From Eledone cirrhosa (Eukaryota), in the NCBI GenBank assembly GCA_964016885.1, contig CAXHJY010000318.1, positions 1 through 31,998 of the forward strand: a DNA stretch of 31,998 bases, given 5' to 3'. Shown piece by piece: positions 3,555 through 28,246 of the stretch; the first letter of the stretch is position 1, and every line of letters begins with the position of its first letter. A program made the translations under genes and the position numbers. A model generated the notes under the pieces. That model did no database searches and was not told the DNA's origin. It saw only the letters and a list, made by a program, of their open reading frames with translations.

Positions 3555-3995
3555 CTGTGTGAGTGTGTGCCTATGTGTTTGTGTATGTGCATGTCCATGT
3601 GTGTTTGTGTATGAGCGTGTGTGTCCATGTGTGTGTATCTACATGTCTTCATGTGTGTCCATATGTTTGTGTGCGCGTGCATATATATATGTATATATGA
3701 AGGAGTCGGGACCCCGACGGCTGAGCTCCTGCCGTTTCAACAGCTGTGTGTGTGTGCATGTATGAGTAAAGGCGTGTGATTGTGTCGTGTGCCAGCGTGC
3801 GTTTGTCTGTGTGCGCGCGTATGTGTATGTGCATGTTAATGTGATTGTGTGTGTGTATGTGCGTTTGTTCGTGTTTGTCTGCATGTATGTGTGTGTGCAT
3901 GTGCGCGTGGGTATGTACATGAGTGTGTGTACGTGCTCGTGCATGTGAGTGAGTGATTGTGTCTGTATATGTTTGAATGGGATTGTGTGTATATG
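3555..3995. repeat. Degenerate (TG)n microsatellite
   Basis: TG/TGCA/TATG-rich low-complexity tract seen directly. Confidence 0.9.
3699..3746 (-). mobile_element. Penelope-like pLTR remnant carrying only the 3' half of a hammerhead
   Basis: Minus strand CAGCTGTT-GAAA-CGGC aggagctca GCCG-TC-GGGGTC. Nearly identical to the arms of the 27439-27544 palindrome. Confidence 0.65.
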
Positions 3996-4482
3996 CTGAT
4001 ATATTTTAAACAGGAGAGAACAGTCAGTTGTTACACTCATCCCCTGTCTTTTTAATCATCTGTTTTGAGGGTATTTTTTTTTTTTTTCTGATCTGCCTTT
4101 TTATTCTTTTCAAACCCCTTTTTTTTCTTAAATAATATTAATTTGTTTTCTTCCTGAAATCCTAGTTTCATTCTTTTTTCAATATAAAAACAATATACAA
4201 CTTACAAAAAAAATAAAAGTAAACGAACAATTTTAGTAATATATAAATTCATCAATAGTTATAAATACATATATCCTGGAAAGATCAACTTAATTCTTTC
4301 TTATTTGTTCTATTGAAAGTTTTTCATAGTTTTCGTCCATGAAAGAAAATTTCGAAAGCTTTTTTACTCATTTCAACATATTTCTTCATGTATATATATG
4401 TATGTATATATTTCTATACTTTTCATTTATATATATATATATATATATATAAGTAGTAACACAACAGTTAGTTCACCATAGC

Positions 4483-4518
4483 GAGAACAATTGTTTCACC
4501 TTAGCGGATCTTCAGCCC
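4483..4518 (-). ncRNA. Minimal type I hammerhead ribozyme motif
   Basis: Minus strand GGG-CTGAAGA-TCCGCTAAGGT-GAAA-CAATTG-TT-CTC. Stem III is palindromic (CAATTG), as in Penelope-type minimal hammerheads. Stems I and II are short. Confidence 0.6.
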
Positions 4519-4582
4519 AGACGCCTAATCGGAGGTAACCGCAGTAAGTAAGGTACTCAATACAAACCAGAGTATAAATATT

Positions 4583-4701
4583 TAATATAGAAAAGCTTCT
4601 ACAGGACTAGAACTGTTTCATTCGTGAGAAATCATCAGGAGCTTCCTGATGATTTCTCACGAATGAAACCGTTCTAGACCTGTAGAATCTTTTCTATATT
4701 A
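4583..4701. ncRNA. 58-bp-arm palindrome with a hammerhead motif on each strand (Penelope-like pLTR fold-back)
   Basis: Arms 4583-4640 and 4644-4701 with 3 mismatches. Consensus AGCTTC-CTGATGA-tTTC tcac GAAt-GAAA-CAG ttctagtc CTG-TA-GAAGCT. Confidence 0.75.
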
Positions 4702-5416
4702 TATATATATATATATATATATATACATACATGCATACATATAAATGTGTGTGTGTGTATATATATATATATACACACACATATATGTATGCATGTATCT
4801 GTATGAATATATATCTGTGTATGAATATATATCTGTGTATGAATATATATATGTATGTGTATGAATATGTATGTATATATATGTGTATGTATATATATGT
4901 GTATGTGGATATATATATATGTGTGTATGTGGATATATATATATGTGTGTATATATATGTGTATATATGTGTGTATGTATATATATGTGTATGTATATAT
5001 ATATGTGTATGTATATAAATGTGTGTATGTATATGTGTGTATGTATATATATGTATGTGTATGTATATATATGTATGTGTATGTATATATATGTATGTAT
5101 GTGTGTATATATATATGTGTATGTCATCATTTTACGTCCGCTTTGTATATATATATGTATATATATGTATGTGTATGAATATATATGTATGTATATATAT
5201 ATATATGTATGTATATATATATATAATGTATGTATATGTATGTATGTGTATGTATATGTATGTATGTGTATGTATATGTATGTATATGTATGTATGTATG
5301 TATATGTATGTATGTATGTGTATGTATATGTATGTATGTGTATGTATATATATGTATGTGTATGTATATATATGTATATATTGTATGTATGTATGTATGT
5401 ATGTATATGTATGTAT

Positions 5417-5915
5417 GGAGGGTGACTTTGGACATCCTGCAGGACTAAAAACAAAACCTGTCAAAGGGCAAAGGAGCTCTTAAGAGTCAATGGCCATCCA
5501 AAATCACCTGGAGAGATGACTCCTTAGCCTTTGTCAAGGCAGAATTCTAGAAGGAAAACTCTGATATAACACCTGCAACTCTGATGGTATCCAATGATGT
5601 TGACTTGTTCTTCTTTTTGGTAAATATCATCTTGGTTAAGAGAGTGGGACTGGCTTTGTGCAGTGCCTTTGCTCACTATAAAAGCTTCACGGCACAGGCA
5701 TTGCTTTACATCTGGAGATCTCTCTGCACTTGTCGTCACATGGTACCAAAGGCAAAGCACTATGTGTCAATAATTGTCACAAGTGTAGTGTTTGTACCAG
5801 AGTTTTCAAGTCGCAGGCTGGACTAAAAAGTCACACTCGTTCAGCGCATCGGTAGGGGTTCTCCTACATGGATATAAAGTAGTGGCCGTACTCGAAAACG
5901 AGTTGGCAGCCACCA
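5417..5915 (+). mobile_element. Bipartite RTE-derived non-autonomous element, copy 1 (5'-truncated)
   Basis: RTE 5'UTR-like TCTAG(GAG)AAGGAAAACTCTGA joined to a 3' end encoding [25 protein letters not shown] (C2H2 finger, 5778-5855). Terminal hairpin CTCGAAAACGAG, then a TATG tail. Confidence 0.8.
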
Positions 5916-6058
5916 TATGTGTATGTATATATATATGTATATATGTATGTATATATATATATGTATGTATGTATGTATGTATATATATATGTATGTATGT
6001 ATATATATATGTATGTATGTATATATATGTATGTATGTATATATATATATATATATGT

Positions 6059-7172
6059 ATCATCATCATCATCATCAAGGTTTAGCGTCCGTGTTCCACG
6101 CTTGCATGGGTTTGGACGGGGGTTTTCCCACTTGAGGCAAGAGTGGTTGTCTTGCTCGCATAGGACTGTCTGGCGGGTTTTCTACAGCTGGATGCCCTTC
6201 CTAACACCAACCACATTTACAGTGTGGGGCTGGGAGGTTTTTACCGTGTTGCCTACACGGCCACATTACAGCGTGGACTGTCTGGCGGGTTTTCTACAGC
6301 TGGATGCCCTTCCTCACACCAACCACATTTACAGTGTGGGGCTGGGAGGTTTTTACCGTGTTGCCTACACGGCCACATTTACAGCGTGGACTGTGTGTTT
6401 TTTGTTGTGACACCTACACGATCTCATTTGTTTCGGCCTGGATGGGGTGGGGGTGGTGGGATGGGGGTGTGTTTTCATAGAGATGCCTACTGACTGTCCT
6501 CTGCACACAATGCCCAGGTCTCACTGCCATGCAGCATTGCTGTTCGTATGCAGGCATTGTATAACCTGCCTTTCATTTTTAGGGAGAACCCTTTAGCGGC
6601 TAATAGTGGTATAAGCTCTCTGAACTTTTTCCATCCAGTTCTGACTCTAGCTACTGTACTTTCAGAGCACCCTCCCCCACTGCTGATTTTGTCGCCCCGG
6701 TAACGGAAGCTGTCCACTATTTCTATAGAACCCTCTGCGCAATTGAAAGAGCTAGTATTCTGTGGGCACTTGCTGCTACTTATTGCACCAGAGCACCGGC
6801 CACATGTAAAATCTATGTTCTTAGTTAGCTTACCTGTAATCCCACTACATCTTTTATGCACCCATACTTTGCATTTGGGACATAAAATGGAGTTTCTACC
6901 TACGCCTTTCCTACACACTGAGCATGGCCATTTCCCGGAAGGGACCGCCGCCTTATTTTCTTTCCTACAAACTAGAACTTTAGTCTTAGCCAGGTTAATT
7001 TTAAGGCCTTTTGATTCTAGGCCATGCTTCCATGTTTGGAATTTCTTCTCTAGTTCGGTCATTGATTCAGCTATGAGCGTTAGATCATCTGCGTATAGGA
7101 GTTCCCATGGGCAGCCGGTCTTGAACTCCTCTGTTATAGCCTGAAGGGCAATAATAAATAGTAGGGGGCTAA
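6059..7172 (-). mobile_element. RTE LINE fragment (RT with PHD insert), 5'-truncated and internally deleted
   Basis: Minus-strand frame reads LSPLLFIIALQA...LLYADDL, then ORF 6487-7062 with PHD and [10 protein letters not shown]. Jumps from ALCAED straight into the 3'UTR. (GAT)n tail at 6059-6076. Close to the 19523-20824 copy. Confidence 0.9.
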
Positions 7173-26982: not shown

Positions 26983-27220
26983 AGTAGTAGTAAAAGTTAG
27001 GGGGATTTATCCAAGGGTAACAGCACTCAGTGCAAAGGACGAGTTTAGTATAATTATTTATATATATATATATAATACTTACGGAAGTTAAGTTGAAACG
27101 ACCAGGGCACAGCGTTAGGATTTTACCTTTTCACTCTACCCACTCTGCATCTCATCATATATCGACTAATACATCATCTTCCCAGTTCTCGCACTCATGC
27201 AAATTTATATACACACACAC

Positions 27221-27300
27221 GGCGCCTGCCAAAACTGCTTGCGGTCGGGATTTTACATATCTCTATACTAATTCTGCATTGAGTACTCCTATGTATAATG
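27221..27300 (+). mobile_element. pLTR remnant with decayed 3'-half hammerhead
   Basis: GGCGCCTGCC-AAAA-CTGC tt GCGG-TC-GGGA (GAAA apparently decayed), followed by GCATTGAGTACT. Confidence 0.45.
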
Positions 27301-27360
27301 CCCCCCCCCCCCCCGCACCCCCCCTCTCTCTCTCTCTCTCTTTATATATATATATATATA

Positions 27361-27544
27361 AACAAAGAGGGTGTGGTAAGATACCAGGTGGACCATAACG
27401 CACCAGAGTATTCAATACTAAGAGTAGTAGAGTGGGTAATAGGAAAAGAGTCACGACCCCGACGGCTGAGCTCCGGCCGTTTCGACAGCTGGATCTGTCG
27501 AAACGGCCGGAGCTCAGCCGTTGGGGTCCTGACTCTTTTCCTAT
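27361..27544 (-). mobile_element. Penelope-like pLTR remnant ending in a 50-bp-arm fold-back (27439-27544)
   Basis: Arms 27439-27488 and 27495-27544 with a 6-nt loop and 2 mismatches. Each arm has GAAA-CGGC..GCCG-TY but no CTGANGA. Confidence 0.7.
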
Positions 27545-27614
27545 ATCATCATCATCATCATCATCATCAACGTTTAACGTCCGTGTTCCACGCTTGCATG
27601 GGTTTGGACGGGGG
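27545..27614 (-). mobile_element. Extreme 3' end of the RTE family with (GAT)n tail
   Basis: Reverse complement of about 20758-20824. Confidence 0.85.
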
Positions 27615-27653
27615 TATAAATATAGTTATGTAATAAACAACATAAGATAATTA

Positions 27654-27714
27654 TTTCATTTACCAGTGGTTTCTTGAAAGCAAGCAAAATTTGCTTTCAG
27701 TCATCAGAATGAAA
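27654..27714 (-). ncRNA. Type I hammerhead ribozyme (left arm)
   Basis: Exact reverse complement of 28186-28246. Confidence 0.85.
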
Positions 27715-28185
27715 AAATCCTGGTGTATTTATTGACAGTGGATTTTAAAAAAAATGAAAAAATCCTGGTGTATTTATTGACAGTGGATTTTTAAAAAAAT
27801 GAAAAAATCCTGGTGTATTTATTGACAGTGGATTTTAAAAAAAATGAAAAAATCCTGGTGTATTTATTGACGGTGGATTTTTAAAAAAATGAAAAAATCC
27901 TGGTGTATTTATTGACAGTGGATTTTTTAAAAAAATGAAAAAATCCTGGTGTATTTATTGACAGTGGATTTTTAAAAAAATGAAAAAATCGAGGTGTATT
28001 TATTGACAGTGGATTTTAAAAAAAATGAAAAAATCCTGGTGTATTTATTGACAGTGGATTTTTAGAAAAAATGAAAAAATCCTGGTGTATTTATTGACAG
28101 TGGATTTTTAAAAAAATGAAAAAATCCTGGTTTATTTATTGACAGTGGATTTTAAAATCCACTGTCAACAAATACACCAGGATTT

Positions 28186-28246
28186 TTTCATTCTGATGAC
28201 TGAAAGCAAATTTTGCTTGCTTTCAAGAAACCACTGGTAAATGAAA
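28186..28246 (+). ncRNA. Type I hammerhead ribozyme (right arm)
   Basis: TTTCATT-CTGATGA-cTGAAAGCAA attttgc TTGCTTTCAa-GAAA-CCA c TGG-TA-AATGAAA: 7-bp stem I, 9-bp stem II, 3-bp stem III. Confidence 0.88.

Follow-up and report, generated by a model that had tools for sequence, protein, structure and literature searches.

This stretch of Eledone cirrhosa DNA raises the question of why so many hammerhead ribozyme motifs lie together among TA microsatellites, and whether they serve the locus or came with elements that inserted there. The stretch, called here the window, is the whole of one unplaced contig (CAXHJY010000318.1, 32 kb, positions 1 to 31,998) within a 3.0-Gb genome. Our answer, to which we give a probability of about 0.8, is that the motifs are the ribozyme-bearing 3' ends of genome-wide families, likely copied into (TA)n by the reverse transcriptase (RT)/GIY-YIG enzymes of Penelope-like elements (PLEs), and that the window is ordinary.

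Hammerhead motifs of the window and their repeat families

The window holds 14 hammerhead motifs. Both core halves are present in nine: 4515(-), 4646(+), 4638(-), 8074(+), 12769(+), 13315(-, a U3-A8 variant reading UUGAUAA), 23663(+, with a 115-nt helix II insert), 27707(-) and 28193(+). The other five, 3738(-), 13530(-), 27231(+, in which G12 reads A), 27483(-) and 27500(+), are partial. All the motifs listed in an initial annotation of this DNA are where it had placed them, and they far exceed chance: a helix-aware scan found five motifs whose helix I has 4 bp or more, where 100 block-wise dinucleotide shuffles average 0.05 (maximum 1), and a core scan found 8 cores against 0.5 (maximum 2).

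The motifs fall into nine repeat families. The same-family groups are 4646/4638, 13315/13530, 27707/28193 and 3738/27483/27500 (scores of 62-128 for the pairs scored), 27483 being the mirror arm of 27500, and five motifs repeat a family already counted. The annotation had held the stems to be unrelated, which is correct between families (local scores 8-21) but not for the 14 motifs taken singly. Two motifs follow GIY-YIG remnants, one lies in a 316-nt tandem retrozyme, and the others are short 3' stubs, arranged as follows (LTR, long terminal repeat).

3699..3746 (-): family G stub, 5'-truncated in helix II; GAAA at 3738-3735, helix III, UC and helix I's 3' strand; ends short, in (TA)n
4452..4521 (-): family A stub, type I; core 4515-4509, U.U at 10.1/11.1, helix III a palindrome, cut predicted after 4486; ends short, in (TA)n
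4522..4711 (both strands): family B head-to-head palindrome centred at about 4640; left arm with core 4638(-) and a tail, right arm with core 4646(+) and short; both imperfect
7172..8305 (+): family C, 3' end of a young autonomous PLE, with a GIY-YIG remnant at 7421-7867
8069-8113 (+): family C pseudo-LTR hammerhead; core 8074, cut predicted after 8108; long end that carries the tail and is followed by (TA)n
10899..12888 (+): family D, 3' end of a second PLE; Cys linker and GIY-YIG remnant at 10899-11336, long C-rich 3' region
12766-12799 (+): family D minimal hammerhead, helix I of 2 bp; ends in (TA)n
13149..13564 (-): family R retrozyme insert, 337 nt or 1.07 monomers of 316 nt
13319-13276 (-): family R U3-A8 hammerhead, cut predicted after 13280; a second ribozyme, which is broken, precedes it at 13564-13498
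23655..24005 (+): family E stub; helix I of 8 bp, core 23663, 115 nt inserted in helix II, GAAA at 23785, helix III a palindrome, cut predicted after 23796; ends long, in (TA)n
27221..27300 (+): family I stub in degraded form; A in place of G12, with helix III and UC still there; GAAA in relatives
27360..27544 (both strands): family G palindrome centred at about 27491 in helix II; the left arm is long (with the tail) and the right one short, and neither has the 5' core half
27623..28345 (both strands): family F fold-back with intact type I hammerheads at 27714-27654(-) and 28186-28246(+); left short, right long
27708-28157: family F junction, ten tandem copies of a 45-nt unit

The features of a type I hammerhead (CUGANGA or its U3-A8 variant, GAAA, UH, the order C-G-S and three helices) are found at 8074, 13315, 23663, 27707 and 28193, and more weakly at 4515. 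The annotation's description of the cores as complete holds for nine motifs in that both halves are there, but helix I is just 2 bp long in 12769, in 4638 it runs for 2 bp up to a mismatch and has lost a base at the palindrome centre, and 4646 is mismatched in helices I and III; these three are degenerate. Its half-cores also exist, but as truncated or degraded copies of repeat families. Those of family G, for example, derive from a full type I ribozyme; full-length copies found elsewhere have 5 bp in helix I and about 60 nt in helix II. A guessed pattern for full-length G had hit only three unrelated places, and it was a DNA query that recovered it; the helix II seen in the 27439 palindrome turned out to be arm-against-arm pairing and not the native helix.

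At position 10.1/11.1, where G-C is usual, families A and B have U.U and families E and F have C.A, fixed across copies; non-G-C pairs occur at 4515, 4646, 23663 and 28193 in the window and in many motifs elsewhere in the genome. A strict scan of the window for permuted hammerheads (block order S-G-C or C-S-G) found none. A repeat family with GAAA upstream of CUGAUGA was seen at other loci (L106:1804-1970(+) and L209:2674-2840(+)), with no match in the window, as was a satellite of about 30-nt units in locus L260, many of them with CTGATGA, in which no hammerhead structure was seen.

Stem covariation among copies, on which the annotation had made its reading depend, was found in two groups. 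The U3-A8 group, gathered by core pattern with no pairing requirement, has 4/11 pairs changed on both sides and 96.6% of cells paired (11 sequences; few independent events), and family B has a compensatory change at 1/11 pairs, C-G in 11 and A-U in 4 (18 distinct rows; again few independent events). In an Rfam scan of the whole window microsatellite matches dominated and no hammerhead was among the 150 listed of 288; local scans gave HH9 at 13259-13329 and 13500-13529 only, the match for 13315 (E=0.0013, 23.8 bits) lying under the cut-off of 52, and no hammerhead match at 8074 or 27654.

Most of these units have (TA)n adjoining their 3' end, so the annotation's picture of ribozymes embedded in TA tracts describes most 3' ends, but not the 27221 stub, which is flanked by (CA)n and (C)n, nor the inner ends of the G and F units, between which another repeat lies (27545-27622).

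Abundance in the genome and proximity to (TA)n

The window was compared with 89 evenly spaced 10-kb chromosome stretches (890 kb), using the same detector, which misses A-, E- and G-type motifs in both. These background stretches contain 103 cores (9-15 in shuffles), of which 61 have helix I of at least 4 bp and are called strict here (0-2 in shuffles). The density of cores is 2.5 per 10 kb in the window (8 in 32 kb) against 1.16 in the background, and strict cores number 4 against 61 in the 89 stretches. Composites of 32 kb resampled from the background reach the window's counts in 8% of draws for cores and 22% for strict cores, so that the locus, which had been called dense, lies inside the genome's range. 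Extrapolation gives 306,000 cores per genome (221,000-400,000), or 202,000 strict cores (141,000-273,000), and the strict background matches comprise 28 helix signatures.

The association with (TA)n is also genome-wide. In the first 74 background stretches, (TA)5 lies within 300 nt 3' of the cut at 40/48 strict matches and on the 5' side at 18/48, compared with 20% of random positions. This bears out both the enrichment next to (TA)n and the proposal that many PLE families and non-coding derivatives insert into such tracts. The number of hammerheads in a background stretch tracks its number of microsatellites (rho 0.56), and the window, with its long TA-rich microsatellites, is 23% microsatellite against an average of 8% elsewhere. 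The window is an ordinary, microsatellite-rich sample of genome-wide families. First-look DNA searches returned genomic candidates for families A (633), B (864), R (1150), E (1026), F (1060), G (320), D (39) and I (55), of which the best 40 per family were scored.

These data bear on whether the cluster has a function at its own locus, with read-through transcripts cut by several ribozymes into fragments or circles, as the annotation had supposed for either strand. Some copies do look intact and young (8074, 13315, 23663, 27707 and 28193), and G10.1-C11.1 and the U3-A8 pair are retained in family R. The predicted folds speak otherwise: the hammerhead is the minimum-energy structure only for 8074 and 28193 among six window units folded, the 13315 unit is predicted to form a rod with its core paired, and the 23663 unit an alternative hairpin. 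Six window motifs sit inside near-perfect inverted repeats predicted to form long hairpins instead, with the arms of B, F and G 71-92% paired. In PMC4209133 (Cervera and de la Pena 2014), minimal hammerheads are reported to be inactive as monomers and weak as dimers and to need a partner of the same family, while the heterologous palindromic loops of the window cannot dimerise and, of its same-family pairs, the single one that lies on one strand and has both core halves includes a broken second copy. With a density inside the genome's range and no host gene seen in the list of open reading frames (ORFs) of the 32-kb window, we regard cleavage of transcripts across the locus as very improbable.

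Two fixed 3' ends and the pairing of inverted copies

In all of the seven families tested (7/7) the 3' end takes one of two fixed positions, some 30 to 135 nt from each other, both lying 3' of the predicted cut and mostly abutting (TA)n. Copies therefore carry either a long end, with the intervening tail, or a short one. In all the DNA compared there are 131 inverted pairs, 21 of them with an arm that could not be classified. Among the remaining 110, 102 combine one long and one short end, 6 have two long and 2 have two short ends, where 50% mixed pairs are expected if the ends are independent (nominal p 3e-22, treating pairs as independent). The background stretches alone give 26/31 long+short pairs, and all three window palindromes are of this kind.

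Only about 5/195 unselected copies start within 3 nt of the predicted cut, and thus the cleavage site sets neither end of the copies. We accordingly rejected a model in which the RT runs off at the ribozyme cut, as 5' ends rarely lie there. The 5' ends vary, and in family C they are dispersed.

Short, high-copy inverted repeats in TA are also what would be expected of MITEs (miniature inverted-repeat transposable elements), that is, DNA-transposon derivatives with TA target duplications, in which hammerhead-like words had arisen by chance. Symmetric terminal inverted repeats with fixed ends are not what we found, since 102/110 pairs are asymmetric: the arms end at two different sites, 5' truncation varies, and the architecture is common to the GIY-YIG-coding family C. 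Target duplications are unreadable inside (TA)n. We consider a MITE origin barely credible.

The 126 junctions between arms comprise 46 with overlap, 17 blunt and 63 with a spacer, some spacers being local duplications. Such a mix resembles that left by end-joining repair. The idea that arms are always joined through short palindromes was rejected by the junction listing. Read in reverse complement, the 45-nt unit of the F junction equals the 45 nt that lie upstream of the core, and comparable duplications occur in locus L197 (family B) and others; they could reflect reiterative copying by a telomerase-related RT, or slippage during repair. At 4452-4711 the 5' end of the family A stub is joined directly, without TA, to the tail of the left arm of family B, an arrangement suggestive of a template switch, within one insertion, from one family's RNA to the other's, or else of a later deletion.

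Where the palindromes are centred raises another explanation, namely that the short ones are non-autonomous elements whose transcribed hairpin masters are recopied by the PLE enzyme, the long+short pattern and the centres being partly inherited. Centres do cluster by family, at the 5' edge of helix I in B and E, in helix II in G and about 45 nt upstream in F, and are dispersed in C and R, families with long masters; the same G junction is also seen at several loci. Nearly all of the 30 B junctions listed, on the other hand, differ in end position or spacer, and the recurring G junction was in the query that fetched those loci. Inheritance from hairpin masters is in our judgement a partial rival, with about one chance in four.

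Coding partners

Two families are linked to coding sequence. A protein search with the family C endonuclease gave 37,136 candidates, the best 150 of them at 97-100% identity, whereas a DNA search found no match, not even to itself, probably as common words were skipped. Family C includes an intact-looking open frame of 1167 amino acids with a YVDD RT, a CX4CX2C linker and a GIY-YIG domain. Pfam recognizes RVT_1 weakly (E=0.003) in one of two long frames and GIY-YIG in the window fragment (E=1e-4). The best named relative of the protein is from Octopus vulgaris (71%); a search for homologues of the short GIY-YIG piece among longer proteins found none. A hammerhead core lies about 208 nt past the ORF in 17/20 family C loci, and locus L251 has a tandem copy. 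The two proposed start sites of family C fall where the next tandem unit shows an ATG with an open frame, which we took to be the start of the ORF.

Family C thus has the RT followed by a C-terminal GIY-YIG in one ORF, as in endonuclease-bearing PLEs, while the family D remnant has GIY-YIG only (E=0.0055; with a profile, E=7e-20). The pseudo-LTR hammerhead, the tandem or inverted copies and the optional tail of such PLEs are also present. By inspection, family C lacks the hallmarks of the Hydra clade (a CxCX5C linker and no CCHH), having CX4CX2C and C/C/H/H in the endonuclease; judged by the linker, it would be Neptune- or Nematis-like.

Family R as a retrozyme

Family R has the organization by which non-LTR retrozymes are defined, with tandem units of 150-450 nt, one type I hammerhead in each, and no ORF. 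All family R spacings below 400 nt (30/30) are of 314-318 nt and arrays reach 9 units within 3 kb; the window copy is a monomer plus a broken fragment. Its PLE-type long and short ends and its inversions support the mobilisation of retrozymes by PLEs that has been proposed in print.

How the copies may arise

The PLE enzyme, we propose, would nick both strands of a TA tract and prime two complementary DNAs (cDNAs) on an uncleaved (or religated, circular) RNA, one from each of a pair of internal start sites. Both cDNAs would stop early, often in the ribozyme region, and be joined head to head by end-joining repair, giving palindromes, while a single cDNA would leave a solitary stub. The ribozyme would then be kept simply by adjoining the start sites. 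Its activity would belong to the RNA of the parent element, where dimers or the help of protein would let it free units from tandem transcripts or close them into circles, and not to the window locus. That each strand uses one start site is something we infer from the count of genomic end pairs.

Several results weigh against this account. A GIY-YIG remnant was found within 900 nt upstream of 0/33 B cores, 0/39 F cores and 1/56 R cores, in loci mostly of 3 kb and with a detector that misses A, E and G, and none of A, B, E, F, G and R yielded a coding partner; we therefore infer mobilisation of these six by PLEs from the structure of their ends only. The 5' ends of families B and G are tighter than random truncation predicts: 34/48 of B fall at the border of helix I on its 5' side (-8..+3 relative to the core), and 48/56 of G fall in helix II, in its 3' arm. 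Aligning copies to a single reference can also produce ends that look like truncation. The junctions do not need microhomology, given the 17 blunt and 63 spacer cases. Finally, in the in vitro reaction of PMC11167929 both strands are alike in start site, and the long+short rule is not predicted by it.

A stronger version holds that the PLE enzyme obligatorily primes two nicked strands from different internal sites, and does so in trans on dozens of non-coding RNAs, including the tandem retrozyme and self-propagating, ribozyme-only hairpin stubs, which would form an undescribed, MITE-mimicking class of retroelement. This we offer tentatively, as a proposal with odds somewhat below even.

The contig and its other contents

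Part of the contig, 24542-31998, duplicates C4:207912594-207920440 at 92-98% identity, beside a 200-N assembly gap. In the 50 kb of C4 compared, nothing collinear with the left 24 kb was found, nor was there an empty allele in the C4 stretch. The contig may be a haplotig or unplaced gap sequence. Since it is an unplaced contig from end to end, with a duplicate beside a gap, one can ask whether it is an assembly by-product, in which the families are real and their local arrangement is not. The G and F structures are alike in both copies, and elements of the left part are 96-100% like copies elsewhere, which makes this explanation improbable.

Frames for RTs of long interspersed nuclear elements (LINEs) are seen at 8351-10171(+), 13928-16372(-), 6487-7173(-) and 19523-20425(+). 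The first two are long and open (607 and 815 amino acids) and match RVT_1 in a Pfam-type domain search; a PHD-finger-like domain is internal to the frame at 8351-10171. By eye, an ORF fragment at 31655-31996, ended by the contig edge, resembles the Hydra-clade RT region of Hydra-1_Obim, with no Pfam match. A 600-bp non-coding repeat lies in TA/TATG tracts, with five whole or partial copies in the window and more in the background stretches; a local scan gave no Rfam match for it at 16680. Its copies in the window are:

5418-5915
13563-13663
16681-17286
18228-18821
22175-22563

Relation to known systems

The type I hammerheads of metazoan PLEs in PMC4209133, the kind to which the annotation had assigned these motifs, do match them: they share a short or palindromic helix III, an extra base between 9 and 10.1, the U3-A8 core and the 2-bp helix I, and they too are mostly solitary motifs from truncated PLEs, with opposite-strand pairs 100-700 bp apart and many families per genome. 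They differ in number, with counts in the thousands for each genome (Xenopus has about 9,000) where we estimate 200,000-300,000, in the U.U or C.A that A, B, E and F have instead of G10.1-C11.1, and in the 60-115-nt helix II inserts of E and G.

PMC8557442 (Craig et al. 2021) describes inverted PLE copies, a tail often at one end only and (TA)n targeting by Hydra and Neptune elements, and lists the Octopus element Hydra-1_Obim with a hammerhead. Tails there are of 30-40 nt, against about 30-135 nt here; unlike in that account, the one-end rule is counted here (102/110) and holds for stubs without coding sequence, and the family C linker, CX4CX2C, is unlike that of Hydra. The Anolis Poseidon element PAc nicks and extends both strands in vitro, uses uncleaved RNA and starts at two internal sites that delimit the tail (PMC11167929, Frangieh et al. 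2024). It resembles our families in these two starts, in its AT-rich target and in ends that are not at the ribozyme cut; in vitro, however, both strands use both start sites alike, whereas the genomic pairs here have one each.

Animal non-LTR retrozymes have been defined, and a PLE origin or mobilisation proposed for them (PMC7229834; bioRxiv 10.64898/2026.07.22.740005). Family R is like them in its AT-rich tandem units (314-318 nt), each with one type I hammerhead and no ORF, and differs from them in its U3-A8 core, PLE-type long/short ends and inversions. We found no genome-wide hammerhead count or end-pairing count for cephalopods in the literature searched, which left out most subscription papers and bioRxiv supplements, and the word 'ribozyme' was not found in the main text of the O. 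vulgaris repeat paper PMC13282606. Already in print, also for an Octopus element, are hammerheads in PLEs, the U3-A8 core, pairs on opposite strands, tails and the targeting of (TA)n; what is unusual is only the genome-wide number of hammerheads and the strictness of the end rule.

Significance

The estimated abundance of 141,000-400,000 hammerheads, depending on stringency, is above the printed counts that we found, up to 120,000 for the axolotl (PMC7229834). The strict end rule constrains the mechanism of PLE integration, and the end structure of family R provides structural support for the mobilisation of retrozymes by PLEs. Repeat annotators are likely to misfile the palindromic stubs as MITEs. 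If the obligatory two-site priming proposed above were true, hundreds of thousands of hairpin-forming ribozyme inserts would be a large source of double-stranded RNA in a lineage that edits its RNA heavily.

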